Of a stretch of 64,000 nucleotides of DNA, positions 55,967-64,000 are shown one piece after another. Within the stretch, counting starts at the first letter, position 1; the number at the start of each line of letters is the position of its first letter. The notes beneath the pieces are model-generated. The model did no database searches, was not told the DNA's origin, and worked only from the letters and a program-made list of their open reading frames with translations. The stretch lies in assembly GCA_015063695.1 (NCBI GenBank), contig SVTQ01000001.1, forward strand, positions 70,311 through 134,310. Direction: 5' to 3'. A program made the translations under genes and the position numbers. The stretch is from Oscillospiraceae bacterium. Its GTDB lineage: Bacteria > Bacillota > Clostridia > Oscillospirales > CAG-272.

Positions 55967-57313
55967 ATGAAAAACGGCACAAAGGCCGAAAATGAAAAAA
56001 GAACCTCTTCTCCTTCGGGAGGAGCTGAGAAGATAAGAATAGACAGAGAAAAACGGACACACAATGCTTATTATCTCAGAGTGTCAAAGGGATATAAGGC
56101 GGCGAAATTTTTTGCTCTTGCCCTTTTTGTGGGATATCTTATCGTAATGATGTGTATGTACCGTTCCTCAATTACATATGATAATCTTATGTATCTCATA
56201 AGAGATTTTGAAACGGACGTTGACGTGTCCTCTCAGGGGTTTGAAAACGTAAATTACAGTGAGAGTGAAAAAATGAGCTTCGCCGTGTACAAGGACCGCC
56301 TTGCGCTGGCAACGGGCACAGAGTTTACACTCTATAATACCACGGGCTCCGTGGAGCTTGAATACGACCATTCAATGGAAAACCCCAAGATCGAAACGGG
56401 AGAAAAGTATGCTCTCGTTTACGATATCGGCGGAACCTCCTATTCTATATACAACACGATCGCGAGAGTAAGCACAAAACGCACGGACTTTGCCATTCAG
56501 GGCGCGGATATCAGCGAGAGCGGTGCGCTTGCCATGATCACCCGTTCCAAGGAAAACAGGTACGTTGTAAGCCTTTATGACGACTCTTTCCGCGAGCTTC
56601 TCAGAGTGTATAAGGATAAATACGTAACGGACGTTGGAATGTCTGCAGACGGAAAGAAGTACGCCCTTGTTTCCTGTAACGTTTCAGGGTCGGATTTTAT
56701 AACCGAGGTCGTTTCGGGGTCTGTTTATTCCGATGCTTCCGCGTCATTTGAAGTGCCCGGACTTCTTCCTCTTTCGGTAGACTTTTTTGACTGCGGAGAT
56801 TTCGTTGCGGTCTGTGACGGCGCGGCGGTATTTGTGAATGCCGAGGGTGAGCTTAAAACCAAATATGACTTTTCGGACATGAGACTTACGAGTGCTTACG
56901 TAGAGGGAGACAGACTTCTTCTGACGGGAAGCGGGAACATCGTGGGAAGTGCATCCGTGGCCATTGTTCTTGACAAGGACGGAGCGGTAATTGACCGATT
57001 TACCTATGACGGAAAAATAACGAGCGGAGTTCTCTCCGAAAACTTCGTATTCTGCCTTGCGGGAGAAGAGATAATAAAACGCGGAGCGGACGGTGCCATG
57101 ACCGTTGAAAGGTGCCCCGCATATGTAAAGACTATCGTGCCCTGCTTTGATAACGTTGCCCTCTGCAGCGGAACAACGGTGACAATGGGCTTTGAGCCCG
57201 AAAAGAATGATCCTCTCACGGGAGCTGCCGCAGAAGATACGGCAGAGGATACCGAAAAGGATACCGCGGAAGCCGAAGAGACCCTTGACGTTGAAATGGA
57301 CGTGCTCGATTAA
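55967..57313 (+). CDS. Membrane-anchored hypothetical protein (DUF5711-like, tentative)
   Basis: Basic N-terminus, one TM segment (FFALALFVGYLIVMMCM), a ~330-aa beta-rich region, and an acidic tail. Confidence 0.5.
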   Translation: MKNGTKAENEKRTSSPSGGAEKIRIDREKRTHNAYYLRVSKGYKAAKFFALALFVGYLIVMMCMYRSSITYDNLMYLIRDFETDVDVSSQGFENVNYSESEKMSFAVYKDRLALATGTEFTLYNTTGSVELEYDHSMENPKIETGEKYALVYDIGGTSYSIYNTIARVSTKRTDFAIQGADISESGALAMITRSKENRYVVSLYDDSFRELLRVYKDKYVTDVGMSADGKKYALVSCNVSGSDFITEVVSGSVYSDASASFEVPGLLPLSVDFFDCGDFVAVCDGAAVFVNAEGELKTKYDFSDMRLTSAYVEGDRLLLTGSGNIVGSASVAIVLDKDGAVIDRFTYDGKITSGVLSENFVFCLAGEEIIKRGADGAMTVERCPAYVKTIVPCFDNVALCSGTTVTMGFEPEKNDPLTGAAAEDTAEDTEKDTAEAEETLDVEMDVLD

Positions 57314-57352
57314 CTTTATAATTTTTAAGTAAATTTTAGCGGAGAAGACATA

Positions 57353-58078
57353 ATGAGTATAGTAATTGATATTCTGCTTATCGCAGTTGCCGCGGCGGCA
57401 GTTGTTGCAGGCTATAAAAGCGGACTTGTTAAAACAGTTCTTTCATTTGCCAGAAGCATTGTGGCGGCAATAGTTGCCTATGCCTTCACACCTTATTTGT
57501 CCCCTGTCTTTTACAACAGCTTCATTCTGAAAAAGATAGCCGACGGTATTGAAAAAACGATAGACTCTCTTGCCAAAAGCGGAGATGGCTATGATTTCGT
57601 AAAGTTCCTTGAGGACGGCCCCAAGGTGCTCTCTCAGATGCTTGAAAAGTACGGAGTGACAAACGAAGCTCTCGGCGCTCACGTTGAAGGAATGAGCGAA
57701 ACGGGAGAGGGAGCCGTCAGAAACGTAGCGGAGTTTATTTCAACTCCCGTTGCAACGGTTATTTCAAATGCCCTTGCTTTTATCATTATCTTTGCGGCGG
57801 CATTTATCGTGCTTCTTCTTGTAAGTAAGCTTATTGAAGTTGTTTTCAAAGCGCCCGTTCTCAAAACTGCCGACAAGCTGGGCGGTCTTGCTCTGGGCGC
57901 AGTAAACGCCCTTGTCCTTCTCTGGATAATCAGTATGGTAGTCTCTCACGGCGTTACGGCGCTGGGCGCTCTTGCTCCCGATTGGTTCGGCGAGAGCGTT
58001 GTTGAAGGCTCCATTCTTCTTCAGTTCTTCTCGAAGATAAATCCCCTTCAGCTTCTTAAAGACGTGATGGGAGCTTAA
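57353..58078 (+). CDS. cvpA: CvpA-family membrane protein
   Basis: N-terminus IVIDILLIAVAAAAVVAGYKSGLVK and a 4-TM layout typical of the colicin V production protein family. Confidence 0.7.
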   Translation: MSIVIDILLIAVAAAAVVAGYKSGLVKTVLSFARSIVAAIVAYAFTPYLSPVFYNSFILKKIADGIEKTIDSLAKSGDGYDFVKFLEDGPKVLSQMLEKYGVTNEALGAHVEGMSETGEGAVRNVAEFISTPVATVISNALAFIIIFAAAFIVLLLVSKLIEVVFKAPVLKTADKLGGLALGAVNALVLLWIISMVVSHGVTALGALAPDWFGESVVEGSILLQFFSKINPLQLLKDVMGA

Positions 58079-58141
58079 CGGACCTTGACGGTCCCTTTGG
58101 GCGCTTTGCCCCTTAACCCTTAGGAAAAGGAGAAAAACAGT

Positions 58142-60445
58142 ATGAATATGACAATGTGTTCAAGATGCCATAAAAGAGTGGCAGTAGTATTTATGACCAA
58201 GATAGAAAACGGCGAGACCAAGCAGGAGGGCATCTGCCTCAAGTGTGCCCGTGAGCTTGGAATTAAACCCGTTAACGATATAATAAGTAAAATGGGTCTG
58301 TCCGATGAGGATATCGAAAAAATGAACTCCGATATAGAGAATTTCATATCGGACAACGGCGAAGGTATGCTCAGTCAGATAATGGGTGACGACCTTCCCG
58401 ATGAATTTGAGGACGACGAGACTGATGCCCGCGCCCCCGCCATGGACTTTTCAAAGCTTGTGGAAAGAGCAAATAAAGAAAAAGCAGATGAAGAAAAGAA
58501 AAAGGGCAAAAAGAAAAAGGAAACAAAGTTCCTCACAACTTATTGTACCAACATGACCGAACGTGCCGCCATGGGTAAAATGGACAACGTTGTGGGCCGT
58601 GACCGCGAGCTTGCACGCGTAATTCAGATCCTCTGCCGCAGACAGAAGAACAACCCCTGTCTTATAGGTGAGCCCGGTGTCGGTAAGACGGCGATAGCAG
58701 AGGCTCTTGCTCAGAAGATAGTAAAGGGCGAGGTTCCCTATGCCCTCAAGAATAAAGAAGTTTACCTTGTTGACCTCACAGCTCTCGTTGCGGGAACTCA
58801 GTTCAGAGGTCAGTTTGAAAGCCGCGTGCTGGGTCTTCTCGGCGAAGTCAAGGCGCTCGGTAACGTAATTCTCGTGATCGACGAGGTCCACAATATCGTC
58901 GGCGCAGGGGATGCAGAGGGAAGCATGAACGCGGCGAATATTCTCAAGCCCGCTCTCTCCCGCGGTGAGATTCAGGTCATCGGCGCAACTACCCTTACCG
59001 AGTACAGAAAGTATATCGAAAAGGATACCGCCCTTGAAAGACGCTTCCAGCCTGTAACCGTTGACGAGCCAAGCATGGATGACACGGAAAAGATACTCCG
59101 CGGAATAAAGCATTATTATGAGGAGTACCATTCCATAACTATTCCTGCAACCGTTCTTTCCTATGCCGTTTCTCTCAGCGAAAGATATATCACCGACAGA
59201 TACCTTCCCGATAAGGCTATCGACCTTATTGACGAGGCGGCGTCCCACATCTCTCTCTCCTCCGCCGAGATAAACGAAAAGCGCGAGTGCATGGATACCA
59301 TAAAGGTCCTTGAAAACGAGAGGGGCAGACTTGAGGCCGAAGCTGAAAAGGGCGAAAATACCGAAGATATATACAGAAGACTTGCCGAGGTCAAGAGTGA
59401 GACCCTTTCCCTTCAGGCAAAGGTAGAAGAGCTTACTCCCCTTTGCGAAAAGGTAGAAATGAAGGTCTCCGACCTTGCGGACGTTATTGAAATATGGACG
59501 GGAATTCCCGCCTCCTCCATCAACGAGGACGAATTCTCCCGTCTCGAAGGACTTTCCGACAGAATAAAGCGCCGCATCGTAGGTCAGGACAAGGCAGTCG
59601 ATGCGGTCGTCAGAGCCGTAAAGCGCGGCAGAACCGGAATTTCACCCAAGAGAAAGCCCGTGTCCTTCATCTTTGCAGGCCCCACTGGAGTGGGTAAGAC
59701 CGAGCTTGTAAAGGTGCTTGCAGAGGACCTCTTCTCCTCTCCCGAAACACTTATAAGACTTGACATGAGTGAATTTATGGATAAGTTCTCAGTGTCCAGA
59801 ATTATAGGTGCGCCTCCCGGATACGTGGGCTATGACGATGCAGGTCAGCTCACCGAGAAGATAAGAAGAAAGCCCTATTCCGTAGTCCTCTTTGACGAAA
59901 TAGAAAAAGCTCATCCCGACGTTATGAATATCCTGCTTCAGATACTTGACGACGGCAGAATTACCGATGCCCACGGCAAGCAGGTAAGCTTTGAAAATAC
60001 AGTTATCGTAATGACCACAAACGCAGGCTCCATGGACGGCTCCCTTCTTTCGGGCTTCACAGATGCTCCCGAGCTCATGTCCGAGGAAAAGACCCATAAG
60101 GCACTCTCCACCTTCCTTCGTCCCGAGTTCATCAACAGAGTTGACGAGGTCATCACCTTCAGAAGCCTTGCGGAAGAAGACTTTGCCCGTATTGCGCGCA
60201 TCATGATATCCGACCTTGAAAAGGTAATGGCGGAAAAGGAGATCACCCTTACGGTCTCCGAGGCGGCAATCGACTATATCGCGAAAAAATCCTTCTCCGT
60301 CAAGTACGGTGCGAGAAATATGCGCAGATTTATCGAGACCGAGGTTCAGGACAGAATTGCCGAGGAGATCATCAGAAATCGCGGCAAACTCACCTCCGTC
60401 AGCATAGATGCAGACGAGACGGGAATAACAGCTGTTTCAGTTTGA
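58142..60445 (+). CDS. clpE: Clp ATPase of the ClpE type (N-terminal zinc ribbon, two AAA+ modules)
   Basis: N-terminal CSRCH...CLKC replaces the Clp_N repeat, as in Firmicute ClpE. D1 GEPGVGKTA, D2 GPTGVGKTE, and a short coiled-coil middle domain. The putative ClpP loop reads LSGF. Confidence 0.8.
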   Translation: MNMTMCSRCHKRVAVVFMTKIENGETKQEGICLKCARELGIKPVNDIISKMGLSDEDIEKMNSDIENFISDNGEGMLSQIMGDDLPDEFEDDETDARAPAMDFSKLVERANKEKADEEKKKGKKKKETKFLTTYCTNMTERAAMGKMDNVVGRDRELARVIQILCRRQKNNPCLIGEPGVGKTAIAEALAQKIVKGEVPYALKNKEVYLVDLTALVAGTQFRGQFESRVLGLLGEVKALGNVILVIDEVHNIVGAGDAEGSMNAANILKPALSRGEIQVIGATTLTEYRKYIEKDTALERRFQPVTVDEPSMDDTEKILRGIKHYYEEYHSITIPATVLSYAVSLSERYITDRYLPDKAIDLIDEAASHISLSSAEINEKRECMDTIKVLENERGRLEAEAEKGENTEDIYRRLAEVKSETLSLQAKVEELTPLCEKVEMKVSDLADVIEIWTGIPASSINEDEFSRLEGLSDRIKRRIVGQDKAVDAVVRAVKRGRTGISPKRKPVSFIFAGPTGVGKTELVKVLAEDLFSSPETLIRLDMSEFMDKFSVSRIIGAPPGYVGYDDAGQLTEKIRRKPYSVVLFDEIEKAHPDVMNILLQILDDGRITDAHGKQVSFENTVIVMTTNAGSMDGSLLSGFTDAPELMSEEKTHKALSTFLRPEFINRVDEVITFRSLAEEDFARIARIMISDLEKVMAEKEITLTVSEAAIDYIAKKSFSVKYGARNMRRFIETEVQDRIAEEIIRNRGKLTSVSIDADETGITAVSV

Positions 60446-60743
60446 TAGAAGAACAAAAATTTTTCGTAACTCCTCATCCACCGCTCAAGGTTTTGAGCGG
60501 TCCCCCTTCTCCCGCAGGAGAAGGCTGTTGCGGCAAACTCACCTCCGTCAGCATAGATGCAGACGAGACGGGAATAACAGCTGTTTCAGTTTGATAGAAG
60601 AACAAAGATTTTTCGTAACTCCTCATCCACCGCTCAAGGTTTTGAGCGGTCCCCCTTCTCCCGCAGGAGAAGGCTGTTGCGGCAAACTTACTTCTGTCAG
60701 CATAGATGCAAACGAGAACGGAATTATTGCAGCTTCAATATAA
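60381..60743 (+). repeat. 149-bp tandem repeat (2 near-identical copies plus a diverged 65-bp third copy) spanning the clpE 3' end
   Basis: Copies start at 60381, 60530 and 60679. Copies 1 and 2 differ at 1 nt. Each begins with the last ~21 codons plus the stop codon of clpE, and copies 1-2 end with an 84-bp double-hairpin segment. Confidence 0.9.
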
Positions 60744-60796
60744 CGTTTTGATGTCCCCGGGAGGGGAACATTTAAAAAATAATGCAGGAGGCATAT

Positions 60797-63532
60797 ATGA
60801 AGATAGATACCAACTGGCATTCCTGGAGCGAGGAGCTTTTGTGTCAGACCCTTAAGACCGACACGGCAAGAGGGCTTTCACGTAAAGCGGCATCGCGCCG
60901 TATGGCAAAAAACGGCCCCAACAGAATATGGTCGGTGAAAAGAGCATCCGTTTCGGAATTTGCCGTTCAGATGCTCCTTGACCTTGCAACCATTCTTCTC
61001 GTTATCTTTGCGGTAATTGCGGCTATCTTTGACAGAACGGGGGAGACCCTTGCTATCTGCGCCGTAGTTGTTGCAGGCGGTGCGCTTCGAATATTCACCT
61101 ATATCAGAGCCCGCCGTATCTTTGAAGAAAAAGCCCGAGGAGTAATCCCCCGAATAAGGGTGATCCGCGACGGTGAGTCAAAAATTATGACCGCCGAAAA
61201 TCTTGTTGAGGGCGACGTTATTTTCCTCGAGGCAGGAGACACCGTACCAGCCGATGCAAGAATAACCCACAGCCGTGACCTTCTTGTGTATGAAAATAAG
61301 ATGACCGAAAATAAGAGCGTCGTGCTTAAAAATCCCGCGGTCATAAACGAGGACGGATTTGGCGAAGTTCCCATCGAAAAAAGAGATAATATGCTCTATG
61401 CGGGAAGCACCGTTGTTTCGGGCGAAGCGAGAGCTATCGTCGTGGCAACGGGTAAAAATACCCTTGCATGCTCGAAGTTCGGAACGCTTATCATCCCATC
61501 GGGCGAAAAGATAAGAATAATCGAAAAACTGACCCATTGGTGCAGATTCGGAAGTCTCTCCATGATAGTTGCGGTCGCGGTCATAACAGTTGCCGCAGTG
61601 CTTATCAAGAACGTATCCGTTGTTGATATATTCCTCTCAACTCTCGGTCTTGCGGTCGCTTCCATGAGCGAATTTTTCACCGTCCTCGGATATATCGTTA
61701 TCGCTATCTCCGTAAAGAAAGCGGACAGCGAAGAGGCAGGCCGCGCCAAGATAAAGGATGCGGCATCCGTTGAAGTCATGAACGAAACGGATACCATAGT
61801 CCTCGAAAGCCCCGAAATGATAAAGGCGGGGGATATCACCCTCACATCTTATTTCCAAAGTGACCGCATAGTAAACGTGGACGAGCCTGTTGAAGGCTAT
61901 TCTCCCGCGGAGATACTGAGACTTGCTTACCTTACCACGGGAACTCTCCCTCAGGGCTCCGTTACGGCAGGACGTCTTGAGGCGGAGCGCGAGAGTATAT
62001 CGGTGGACTATTCGGGAATACATAAAGTATATGAAGAGTATTTCCGCTTTACGGGTGAGAGCAGAATAATTGAAAACGTTATCATTGCAGGACACGAGCC
62101 TGCGGGCAGCCTTGAATCGGGCGGACTTGATACCACGCTTATTTGTAAAAACGGTAATTTTGAAGCGGCGGTAAGCGGCCCCGTAAACGAGGTTCTCACC
62201 TGTTGTTCCCATATAAGAAAAAACGGCAAGGTGTACCCCATCACCCGTGAGGACGTGGCAAAGATAGTCTCCGAGTCCGAAAAGCTCCGCAAACGCGGCG
62301 TGTTCACCGTGGGCGTTTCCTCGAGAAATTCGCCCTACAGTAATATGAACAGAGTGTCTGCTCTTCAGATGTGTATGGTCTTTGAGGGCTTCCTGTCCCT
62401 TTCCGACCGTGTTCACGGCGATGCCCTTGACGTTATAAGAAAATGCCGCGAGGGTGATACAGCCATAGTATGCTTCTCCGAAGGCTCGCCCGAGGACAGG
62501 GCATTCCTTGAATCCGTGGGAATTCTCGGTGAAAACGACAGATATATCACCCTTGAAGAAGCGGTGAGTTCTGAAAAAATAACCCTTGAAAAGGGACAGT
62601 TTGCTGTTATCGCAACGGGTGTTGCAGGCGCACATAAGTGCCGCCGCGAATTCCTTAAAAAGCTGAAGGACGGCGGCTCGAAGCTTGCCTATGTCAGCAA
62701 GGAGCCCCGTGATATGTGGGCGATGAAGGAGGCGGACGTTTCCTTCGCAGTGCCCGAGGCGGCAACGGTCAAAAAGACCATTCCTCAGTCCATAAGAGCG
62801 GCGGCTCACGTAGTCGTAACTCCGTCGGGTAACGGCGGCGGTGTGTTCGAAGCCTTCCGTGTTCTTGAGTTTGCCAAGAGCGCAATGCTTAACCTACGCA
62901 GATGCGCCGATTACCTCATAGCCTCTCAGGTGGCAAGACTTCTTTACGTAATAGTATCCGCCCTTGCTCCCTTTGCGGTGGCGGACCCCGTCCACCTTCT
63001 GTTCTGGGGACTTATCGTTGACTTCGGAATAGTTATCGTGACCGCGTTCAGAGATCCGCCGTGGAATATGATAAGTGTGGGAGAAGAGAAGAGAAAGCTC
63101 CACAGCACTCCCCATGAATTTGCTTATCCCGTGGCGGTAGGCTTTATCTGGGCGGCTCTGCTTCTCTGTATGCCGACAGTGTTCCTCTCTCTCGGAAACG
63201 CTTTCGGCCGAGAGACAACGGGCGCGCTTCTTTCAAATGTCATCTTCGTGTCAGCAATGCTCTCCGCACCCATTGTTGGAACTGAGCTTATGACAAACGG
63301 AAGCATCTTCAAGAAGTCGAAGCGTCGCAGTAACGCGATACCCCTTATGCACATCGGAATGCTTGTTCTTTCCGTTCTTCTCGCCTTCCGCGAAGGCTTT
63401 TCATCGGTAACGGGAGTTGAAACTCTCGGAGGCCCCACCTATTTCGTTTGCTTTATCCCCGCTCTTGTTATGCTGGCAGTGTTTGAGATAAGAAAGCTAC
63501 TTAAACTGAGAGCACCGAAGGAAACAAAATAA
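60797..63532 (+). CDS. P-type (type II-like) cation ATPase homologue with degenerate catalytic motifs
   Basis: Cation_ATPase_N-like start (GLSRKAASRRMAKNGPNRI), AGDTVPADARI retained, and ~10 TM segments. TGES is replaced by TENK, DKTGT by ESPEM, and TGDGVND by VSKEPRD. Start at ATG 60797 (AGGAGG, 5-nt spacer). Confidence 0.8.
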   Translation: MKIDTNWHSWSEELLCQTLKTDTARGLSRKAASRRMAKNGPNRIWSVKRASVSEFAVQMLLDLATILLVIFAVIAAIFDRTGETLAICAVVVAGGALRIFTYIRARRIFEEKARGVIPRIRVIRDGESKIMTAENLVEGDVIFLEAGDTVPADARITHSRDLLVYENKMTENKSVVLKNPAVINEDGFGEVPIEKRDNMLYAGSTVVSGEARAIVVATGKNTLACSKFGTLIIPSGEKIRIIEKLTHWCRFGSLSMIVAVAVITVAAVLIKNVSVVDIFLSTLGLAVASMSEFFTVLGYIVIAISVKKADSEEAGRAKIKDAASVEVMNETDTIVLESPEMIKAGDITLTSYFQSDRIVNVDEPVEGYSPAEILRLAYLTTGTLPQGSVTAGRLEAERESISVDYSGIHKVYEEYFRFTGESRIIENVIIAGHEPAGSLESGGLDTTLICKNGNFEAAVSGPVNEVLTCCSHIRKNGKVYPITREDVAKIVSESEKLRKRGVFTVGVSSRNSPYSNMNRVSALQMCMVFEGFLSLSDRVHGDALDVIRKCREGDTAIVCFSEGSPEDRAFLESVGILGENDRYITLEEAVSSEKITLEKGQFAVIATGVAGAHKCRREFLKKLKDGGSKLAYVSKEPRDMWAMKEADVSFAVPEAATVKKTIPQSIRAAAHVVVTPSGNGGGVFEAFRVLEFAKSAMLNLRRCADYLIASQVARLLYVIVSALAPFAVADPVHLLFWGLIVDFGIVIVTAFRDPPWNMISVGEEKRKLHSTPHEFAYPVAVGFIWAALLLCMPTVFLSLGNAFGRETTGALLSNVIFVSAMLSAPIVGTELMTNGSIFKKSKRRSNAIPLMHIGMLVLSVLLAFREGFSSVTGVETLGGPTYFVCFIPALVMLAVFEIRKLLKLRAPKETK

Positions 63533-63618: not shown

Positions 63619-64000
63619 ATGTCAGAATGTACACATGACTGTTCAAGCTGTTCTGCAGATTGTGCCTCCAGAAACAGCGCACCTGTCCATGAAAAGCCCC
63701 ATCAGGACAGTAAAATTAAAAAGGTCATCGGCGTTGTAAGCGGTAAGGGCGGCGTTGGTAAATCCATCGTAACCTCCATGCTTGCAGTTGCAATGATGAA
63801 AAAAGGCCACAAGGTAGCTATCCTTGATGCCGACATCACAGGTCCCTCAATTCCCAAGGCTTTCGGTGTGTCCGGCCAGGTTTACCAGGAAAGAGGCGGC
63901 CTTCTCCCCCTTCAGAGCAAGGGCGGAATAAAGGTAATGTCCCTCAATCTTCTTCTCGAGGATGAAACAGCTCCCGTAGTGTGGAGAGGTCCCGTTATCG
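63619..64000 (+). CDS. mrp: Mrp/ApbC/NBP35-family Fe-S cluster carrier ATPase (3' end outside the window)
   Basis: ATG 63619 with AAAGGAG 7 nt upstream. Cys-rich N-terminus (CTHDCSSCSADC) and deviant Walker A SGKGGVGKS. The frame stays open to the window end. Confidence 0.8.
   Translation, partial: MSECTHDCSSCSADCASRNSAPVHEKPHQDSKIKKVIGVVSGKGGVGKSIVTSMLAVAMMKKGHKVAILDADITGPSIPKAFGVSGQVYQERGGLLPLQSKGGIKVMSLNLLLEDETAPVVWRGPVI

Follow-up and report, generated by a model that had tools for sequence, protein, structure and literature searches.

A family of P2A-type ATPase homologues in uncultured gut and rumen Clostridia that lost the catalytic motifs and probably persist as pseudoenzymes

The window analyzed here is a 64,000-nucleotide (nt) stretch of an Oscillospiraceae genome (contig SVTQ01000001.1, positions 70,311 to 134,310), and its gene at 60797..63532 encodes a 911-amino-acid (aa) homologue of the P2A-type ATPases that appears catalytically dead and is referred to here as the pseudo-pump (all window coordinates are on the + strand). 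What defines the P-type ATPase superfamily is the Asp of DKTGT that becomes phosphorylated, and its bacterial members receive the annotation of cation pump by default. In the pseudo-pump, homology to these pumps was combined with loss of the essential catalytic residues, and purifying selection was found over many lineages, with a dN/dS (ratio of nonsynonymous to synonymous substitution rates) of 0.06 and approximately 148 full-length clusters at 50% identity. Judged from the residues at the motif positions, canonical ATP binding, aspartyl-phosphate formation and dephosphorylation would no longer be possible. We consider it highly likely that the pseudo-pump is a selected, non-catalytic protein. 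The best explanation overall, held with more reserve, is that it is probably a functional pseudoenzyme derived from a P2A Ca2+ pump and works in the membrane without catalysis, as a component of another kind; each specific role proposed for it is doubtful when taken singly.

The open reading frame at 60797-63532 ran through 911 codons and a stop without interruption. The ribosome-binding site AGGAGG (60786..60791), read from the sequence, lay 5 nt 5' of the ATG at 60797, which bears out the strong ribosome-binding site and unbroken frame described in the initial annotation. The closest orthologue, L006 (85% identity), had the same GCAGGAG...ATG junction, and orthologues shared the start Met, with the N-terminal consensus MxIDTNWHSW. 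Sequencing error is unlikely because two contigs are recorded as encoding the identical 911-aa protein (P0001). When compared with Pfam, the protein matched E1-E2_ATPase (1.5e-22), Cation_ATPase_N (3.8e-10) and Cation_ATPase_C (7.4e-9) above the gathering score, and no Pfam match to the HAD domain PF00702 was found in it; this profile comparison had been suggested with the initial annotation. All NCBIfam P-type models scored far under their cutoffs, the best being the MgtA type (136 bits vs 611); the Ca2+-ATPase equivalogs gave 86 bits for TIGR01116 (cutoff 703), 97 for TIGR01522 (cutoff 798) and 46 for TIGR01517 (cutoff 507).

Motif positions were taken from a phmmer alignment to Listeria LMCA1 (E = 2.9e-30) and from a 193-sequence MAFFT alignment with bona fide pumps. 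Both alignments agreed on every substitution, placing the substitutes at the motif columns and at exactly the nucleotide positions first reported. The TGES dephosphorylation loop was replaced by T170-E-N-K173 (61304..61315), and the catalytic Glu (E183 column) was kept in 7% of the family. In M4, M290-S-E292-F-F294 (61664..61678) stood in place of IPEGL (IPEAL in LMCA1); the Glu was retained in the window protein and the helix-breaking Pro was gone, the two residues being kept in 82% and 3% of the family, respectively. The DKTGT phosphorylation site read E337-S-P-E-M341 (61805..61819). Across the family, the phosphorylation column held Pro in 30%, Glu in 11%, Ser in 10%, Cys in 10% and Asp in 2%. 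The suggestion that Asp to Glu mimics a permanently modified state was not sustained, since Pro was commonest and Glu is the trait of one sub-clade. The two remaining HAD motifs were also changed: S561-E-G (62477..62485) replaced TGD, and V633-S-K-E-P-R-D639 (62693..62713) replaced TGDGVND of the Mg2+ site, where D703 was kept in 6%, N706 in 2% and D707 in 56% of the family.

Nucleotide-binding residues were lost as well. Phe487, Lys492 and Lys515 of the N-domain pocket (SERCA numbering) were Ala436, Gly442 and Ser460 in the window protein, with the canonical residues in 2-3% of the family (2% for the adenine-stacking Phe487 and 2% for Lys515), and the KGA motif was also lost. An intact DKTGT, TGES or GDGxND elsewhere in the 911-aa protein, named at the outset as a finding that would overturn the proposal, was looked for and none was found. 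In the P and N domains, the only columns conserved at 85% or more across the family were Gly and Cys, and polar residues never reached that level, which argues against a relocated active site.

An AlphaFold2 model built on a 45-sequence family alignment had a pLDDT (predicted local distance difference test) of 83.6 and a pTM (predicted template modelling score) of 0.79, and it contained A, N and P domains and ten transmembrane helices, where about ten had been anticipated. Foldseek matched P2-type pumps in the PDB over the whole length, the top hit being the Na,K-ATPase in the E1.Mg2+ state (8jfz; E = 6e-42, template modelling score 0.80). The superposition on SERCA that had been proposed as a check gave scores of 0.77-0.78 for the E1 forms of SERCA and SPCA1; E2 forms scored approximately 0.57. 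The E1-like pose of the model is not taken as a sign of a preferred state. When the family profile was compared with the PDB, LMCA1 scored best (378 bits, E = 7.5e-112), followed by SPCA1 (332), MgtA (272), SERCA (269) and the Na,K- and H,K-ATPases (approximately 250), indicating descent from LMCA1/YloB-type P2A Ca2+ pumps. The C-terminal membrane half alone had no match in the PDB. Pfam, the model, Foldseek and the family profile together recovered the A, P, N and M domains of the superfamily, with the M1-M6 core and M7-M10, and the collinearity with type-II, YloB-like pumps noted initially was confirmed.

The loss of catalytic motifs extended to a large family. A first search returned approximately 48 clusters, from 100% down to 22% identity, all without PF00702 and without all five motifs. 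Every match beyond these clusters was a normal pump, and true pumps all carried PF00702. A family profile search covering 1.84 billion representatives, with members counted as 50%-identity clusters, returned 150 full-length proteins at 470-1220 bits, 149 of which lacked the motifs. The lowest-scoring protein, P0263, was an intact pump and marked the family boundary. It was the only candidate for intact motifs inside the family and was set aside as an ordinary pump in an unrelated context; a DKTGS in P0127 was off-register and a chance match. The members all came from metagenome-assembled genomes ('Clostridia bacterium', 'Eubacteriales bacterium', 'uncultured Ruminococcus sp.') and belonged to a single clade of uncultured Clostridia from gut and rumen. 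Several were labelled as cation-transporting P-type ATPase in NCBI. Some members were long (1,040-1,290 aa in total): P0142, P0137, P0135, P0149, P0038, P0143, P0134, P0138 and others had tails of 150-370 aa beyond approximately residue 920. The tails were acidic, Pro-rich, of low complexity and cytoplasmic; no Pfam domain was found in these C-terminal extensions, and those of P0142 and P0149 shared the motif F[ST]GIGYLFS[ED]xEY near the end. Among the distant matches, P0264, P0274, P0276 and P0278 were intact P-type ATPases of approximately 1,700 aa, about twice the normal length, with an extra PF19991 domain.

Selection on the window gene was measured against L006 by the Nei-Gojobori method. 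The dN/dS was 0.060 for the whole pseudo-pump gene, compared with 0.044 for the neighbouring ClpE-like gene, 0.066 for EcfT, 0.104 for TruA and 0.18 for both CvpA and DUF5711; dS was near saturation (1.66), so the absolute values are rough and the comparison with the neighbouring genes is the robust result. Within the pseudo-pump, the value was 0.011 in the former phosphorylation segment (P1), 0.059 in the N domain and 0.063 in the second P segment (P2). When the information content of each column was expressed relative to 89 real pumps, the P domain was the most reduced (0.46-0.48) and the N-terminus and A domain the least (0.75-0.81). The core of the actuator (A) domain (residues ~115-235; 61139..61501) was the best-conserved part of the family, at 0.75 of real pumps, with invariant P118, R124, G139, D140, G147, P151, D153, R155, N198 and G209. 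Constraint has shifted from the P domain toward the A domain and the N-terminus. Among the transmembrane helices, M1-M6 were better conserved than M7-M10. The survey of orthologues called for by the initial annotation thus gave a divided answer: the loss of canonical residues was family-wide and dN/dS was below 1, but the residue substituted at the phosphorylation site varied.

The membrane ion site was remodelled rather than erased. LMCA1 binds a single Ca2+ at site II via Glu292, Asn716 and Asp720; Arg795 of M8 obstructs its site I, and Ala691 replaces SERCA Glu771 (PMC11468904). In the M6 motif G738-L-I-V-D742 of the pseudo-pump (63008..63022), D742 aligned with SERCA D800 and LMCA1 D720 and was conserved in 100% of the family. 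G738 aligned with the site-II Asn (N796 and N716, respectively); this column was Gly in 97% of the family vs Asn in 91% of real pumps. Of the three site-II ligands of LMCA1, two would be represented by E292 and D742 according to the alignment. R714 in M5 (62936..62938) occupied the SERCA Glu771/LMCA1 Ala691 position and was Arg in 89% of the family; real pumps had Glu there in 92%. The M8 position of LMCA1 Arg795 was Gln or Ala. With MSEF for PEGL, Asn changed to Gly and the M4 and M6 prolines both lost across the family, the site differed from that of P2A Ca2+-ATPases although its Glu and Asp were kept. R714 probably pairs with the buried carboxylates of D742 and E292, which would give a self-neutralised core.

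In the window, the gene order was ecfA-ecfA'-ecfT, truA, a DUF5711 gene, a CvpA-family gene, the ClpE-like gene, the pseudo-pump and an Mrp/ApbC gene. The ClpE-like gene (58142..60445) is the immediate upstream neighbour and encodes a 767-aa double-ring Clp/Hsp100 AAA+ protein by Pfam. It has an N-terminal CX2CX22CX2C zinc ribbon with invariant C6, C9, C32 and C35 and a 22-residue spacing, which we take to be a hallmark of ClpE and on which the name ClpE-like is based. Both Walker A/B pairs of its two AAA+ modules were intact, and G638-F639 was invariant at the ClpP-loop position. Against NCBIfam, the protein fell under the ClpB and ClpA cutoffs and had no ClpE-specific match. The DUF5711 and CvpA-family membrane protein genes (55967..58078; Pfam) belong to the conserved upstream string. 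That string, ecfA-ecfA'-ecfT-truA-DUF5711-CvpA-(PgsA-like in some)-ClpE-like (55967-60445 in the window; L001-L075), was conserved over a broad range of metagenome contigs from Clostridia, those of the human gut among them. Neither DUF5711 nor the zinc-ribbon Clp/Hsp100 protein has an NCBIfam equivalog, and both seem uncharacterised.

The ClpE-like gene lay directly 5' of the pseudo-pump, with the same upstream string, in 16 of the 17 loci found through the pump itself, and the adjacency held down to members only 22-31% identical. Outside the window, the gap was 3-52 nt or the genes overlapped (ATGA or 20 nt), so co-transcription with the ClpE-like gene is probable. The exception, P0044 (L014 5330-8754), was preceded by a gene for a 223-aa stand-alone HAD hydrolase (PF00702/HAD_2) whose stop overlapped the pump start. 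This may be a coincidence, or a HAD domain may be supplied in trans; rhamnosidase and dockerin genes were found around L014. The pseudo-pump is the last gene of the conserved string; genes 3' of it varied and included mrp, a PRC-barrel gene with rpsB-tsf, SASA and unknowns. In the window, the downstream Mrp/ApbC-type (ParA/NUBPL; Pfam) gene (63619..64000) runs off the end, and it follows the pump in some clades only. A PRC-barrel (YlmC/YmxH-like) gene was directly 3' of the pump in some genomes (L017 9712-10038, L018 9786-10079). At L017 15085-16694, STAS, HATPase_c_2 and sigma-70 genes had the order of the spoIIAA-spoIIAB-sigF operon, which suggests endospore formation by the host lineage.

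A neighbour-joining tree of 63 ClpE-like proteins placed all pump-bearing loci in one clade; L019, which carries the pump with a start overlap, was counted among them. A single origin followed by vertical inheritance is the simplest history. No real pump 3' of a ClpE-like gene, a candidate positional ancestor, was found among 80 metagenome loci. An 894-aa open reading frame after the ClpE-like gene in L033 was rejected as a family member (hhalign probability 0.1%, unrelated), and other large frames at this position in pump-less loci were RluA-like, MCP, ferredoxin/flavodoxin and similar.

The window differs from its relatives at the ClpE-pump junction, where the 3' end of the ClpE-like gene has been duplicated by a 149-nt tandem repeat of 2.4 copies (60381..60737), leaving a widened gap of 351 nt between the two genes. 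The copies at 60381-60529 and 60530-60678 were 99-100% identical, and the partial third copy (60679-60737) was 81% identical. Each full unit consisted of the last ~65 nt of the ClpE-like reading frame and a perfect hairpin, ACCGCTCAAGGTTTTGAGCGGT. Copy 3 and the sequence up to the pump start aligned with the native ClpE end, spacer and ribosome-binding site of L006, indicating that approximately 298 nt were inserted with the ClpE-like reading frame preserved. The repeat may have arisen from a small insertion element or by recombination, or it may be an artefact of assembly.

Under the pseudoenzyme explanation, an LMCA1/YloB-type P2A Ca2+-ATPase, vertically inherited, would have kept the A/N/P/M architecture and the ten transmembrane helices while losing catalysis. 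Its ion site would have become the self-neutralised core, with Glu292 and Asp742 kept and Arg714 of M5 occupying the former site I, in an extension of the built-in-Arg principle already used by LMCA1 (Arg795). Such a core may let the transmembrane bundle fold stably without ion transport, and the still-constrained A domain with the rest of the headpiece could serve as the docking or conformational module of the membrane component. It might serve as a scaffold, as a regulator or as a sensor responsive to cations or protons. Of the channel, sensor or scaffold functions first suggested, the non-catalytic part is likely; a cation channel is argued against, as the alignment equips the ion site with a built-in Arg that is conserved.

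The conserved neighbourhood raises the alternative that the pseudo-pump is a membrane adaptor or anchor whose headpiece docks the ClpE-like AAA+ protein (and ClpP) at the membrane, where it could act in membrane-protein quality control or couple transmembrane cation binding to regulated proteolysis. The tight junction in 16 of 17 loci while downstream genes differ, the intact ClpE-like protein with its invariant GF, and an A domain strongly constrained though TGES is lost all favor this proposal. However, the linkage is one-way: where zinc-ribbon ClpE-like loci had sufficient sequence 3' of the gene, only 3 of approximately 45 carry the pump. The pump loci also form one clade with the whole upstream string conserved, so inherited gene order can explain the adjacency, and the 298-nt insertion parts the two genes in the window. 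We regard an adaptor as unlikely. A little less probable again is an ATP-independent ion pathway or a cation/proton sensor, in which the M4 Glu and M6 Asp would bind Ca2+, Mg2+ or H+ and the protein would work as a leak, a channel or a ligand-gated switch. The two retained site-II ligands and the better conservation of M1-M6 are consistent with it, as is a variant reduced to a 6-transmembrane core in L020. By contrast, the third ligand is Gly, the prolines that unwind M4 and M6 to expose backbone carbonyls are lost, the gating machinery is gone, and cations would be repelled by the conserved Arg, which probably pairs with the carboxylates. Combining elements of both, a dead P-type ATPase might sense membrane or cation status via the Glu/Asp/Arg core and signal through its A domain to the co-transcribed ClpE-like unfoldase; this is a speculative scheme to which we give slightly less weight than to either.

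Energized activity by non-canonical chemistry, or through a trans partner (for example, a separate HAD protein or the AAA+ ATPase encoded next door), would fit the overlapping HAD gene before P0044 and the purifying selection that persists in both the N and the P domain. Among the 17 loci, though, P0044 alone has such a HAD neighbour. The nucleophile column is occupied mainly by Pro, Ser, Cys or Glu, the nucleotide pocket has lost the adenine-stacking Phe together with its two Lys residues, and P/N-domain conservation at 85% or more is confined to Gly and Cys columns, making such activity very improbable. Least credible is a decaying pseudogene, a neutral relic or a sequencing or assembly artefact. 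The family does evolve fast, and certain lineages have a truncated gene or have lost it, but the frame is unbroken, the same protein is known from two contigs, the start codon and ribosome-binding site are conserved, dN/dS is low in every domain and the full-length clusters are numerous. This possibility is largely refuted, in agreement with the initial view that the gene is not decaying.

Several observations weigh against the pseudoenzyme explanation or limit it, in addition to the near-saturated dS. The pseudo-pump diverges fast, at 26-33% identity where the ClpE-like protein holds 62-71%, a deep divergence rate that resembles those of DUF5711 and CvpA. Within the pump clade, L021 has lost the gene completely, L020 7329-9566 holds a 745-aa form ending right after M6, and L022 7338-9599 is a 753-aa remnant with no Pfam match and no A domain, whose similarity to the family profile (hhalign probability 94%) was confined to the P/N and M5-M10 columns; constraint would be weaker, or the pump dispensable, in these lineages. 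Only 3 of the 80 metagenome loci retrieved with the ClpE-like protein carried the pump. Approximately 40 other ClpE-like loci with the zinc ribbon and enough downstream sequence, many of them from human gut, had unrelated genes at the pump position while still keeping the ecfT-truA-(DUF5711)-(cvpA)-ClpE string. With a single origin and vertical inheritance, the ClpE adjacency may reflect inherited gene order as much as functional coupling, and it may be inherited gene order only. The putative R714-D742/E292 salt bridge is suggested by alignment, and the roles named for the pseudo-pump are proposals.

The family is apparently undescribed. Pfam and NCBIfam have no model for it, and the full-text literature yielded no bacterial family of pseudo or inactive P-type ATPases, in keeping with the first impression that no such family had been characterised; TCDB and Chan et al. 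2010 lay outside this search, and a brief mention there is possible. Literature on FUPA families, DUF5711 and a ClpE-pump link held nothing relevant for bacteria, and a 2023 review of the P-type ATPase field made no mention of inactive members (PMC10654040). The label 'cation-transporting P-type ATPase' should not be applied to family members, which would correct a systematic mis-annotation in genomes of gut and rumen Clostridia. A large, selected family that keeps the fold and discards the chemistry points to a scaffold that is useful apart from pumping, and it offers a natural experiment in which the A domain and the transmembrane ion site are uncoupled from ATP. A functional ClpE link, if there is one, would connect proteolysis to the membrane in a new manner; were the pseudo-pump a ClpE-linked sensor, a membrane receptor or adaptor for regulated proteolysis would have been made from a transporter scaffold.

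Among known systems, LMCA1 (lmo0841) and YloB-type pumps are the nearest in sequence, being the best match for both the window protein and the family profile. They share with the pseudo-pump a length of approximately 900 aa, the Cation_ATPase_N/A/P/N/Cation_ATPase_C architecture with ten transmembrane helices, the M4 Glu and M6 Asp of the single Ca2+ site and a built-in Arg in the former site I. Unlike LMCA1, the pseudo-pump has lost DKTGT, TGES, TGD, GDGxND, KGA and the adenine-stacking Phe, has MSEF for PEGLP and Gly for the site-II Asn, and reaches no NCBIfam equivalog cutoff. The built-in Arg also differs in position, being on M8 in LMCA1 (Arg795) and on M5 in the pseudo-pump (LMCA1 Ala691/SERCA Glu771 position). 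A basic side chain replaces a bound cation in the transmembrane site of the Lys-bearing H,K-ATPases and Na,K-ATPase alpha2KK, and Arg795 of LMCA1 follows the same principle. H,K-ATPase and alpha2KK structures were among the PDB matches of the pseudo-pump. However, these built-in-cation pumps are still active with reduced stoichiometry, whereas the pseudo-pump has lost energy coupling. Homology to an enzyme family, lost catalytic residues and purifying selection are shared with bacterial pseudoenzymes such as pseudokinases. By analogy, the closest published counterpart is found in the guanylate cyclases of alveolates and stramenopiles (e.g., GC-beta of Cryptosporidium and Plasmodium), whose P4-ATPase module shows degenerate DKTGT and LDGET motifs in part of the lineages and has been assigned a proposed supporting, possibly non-catalytic role (PMC13466520). 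There too the P-type fold is retained although certain lineages have altered or lost the Asp of DKTGT and the catalytic Glu of the A domain. Those modules are eukaryotic, of the P4 subtype and fused to a cyclase with an obvious function, and their degeneration is partial and lineage-specific. By contrast, the pseudo-pump is a stand-alone bacterial protein of P2A descent in which the loss is total and family-wide.

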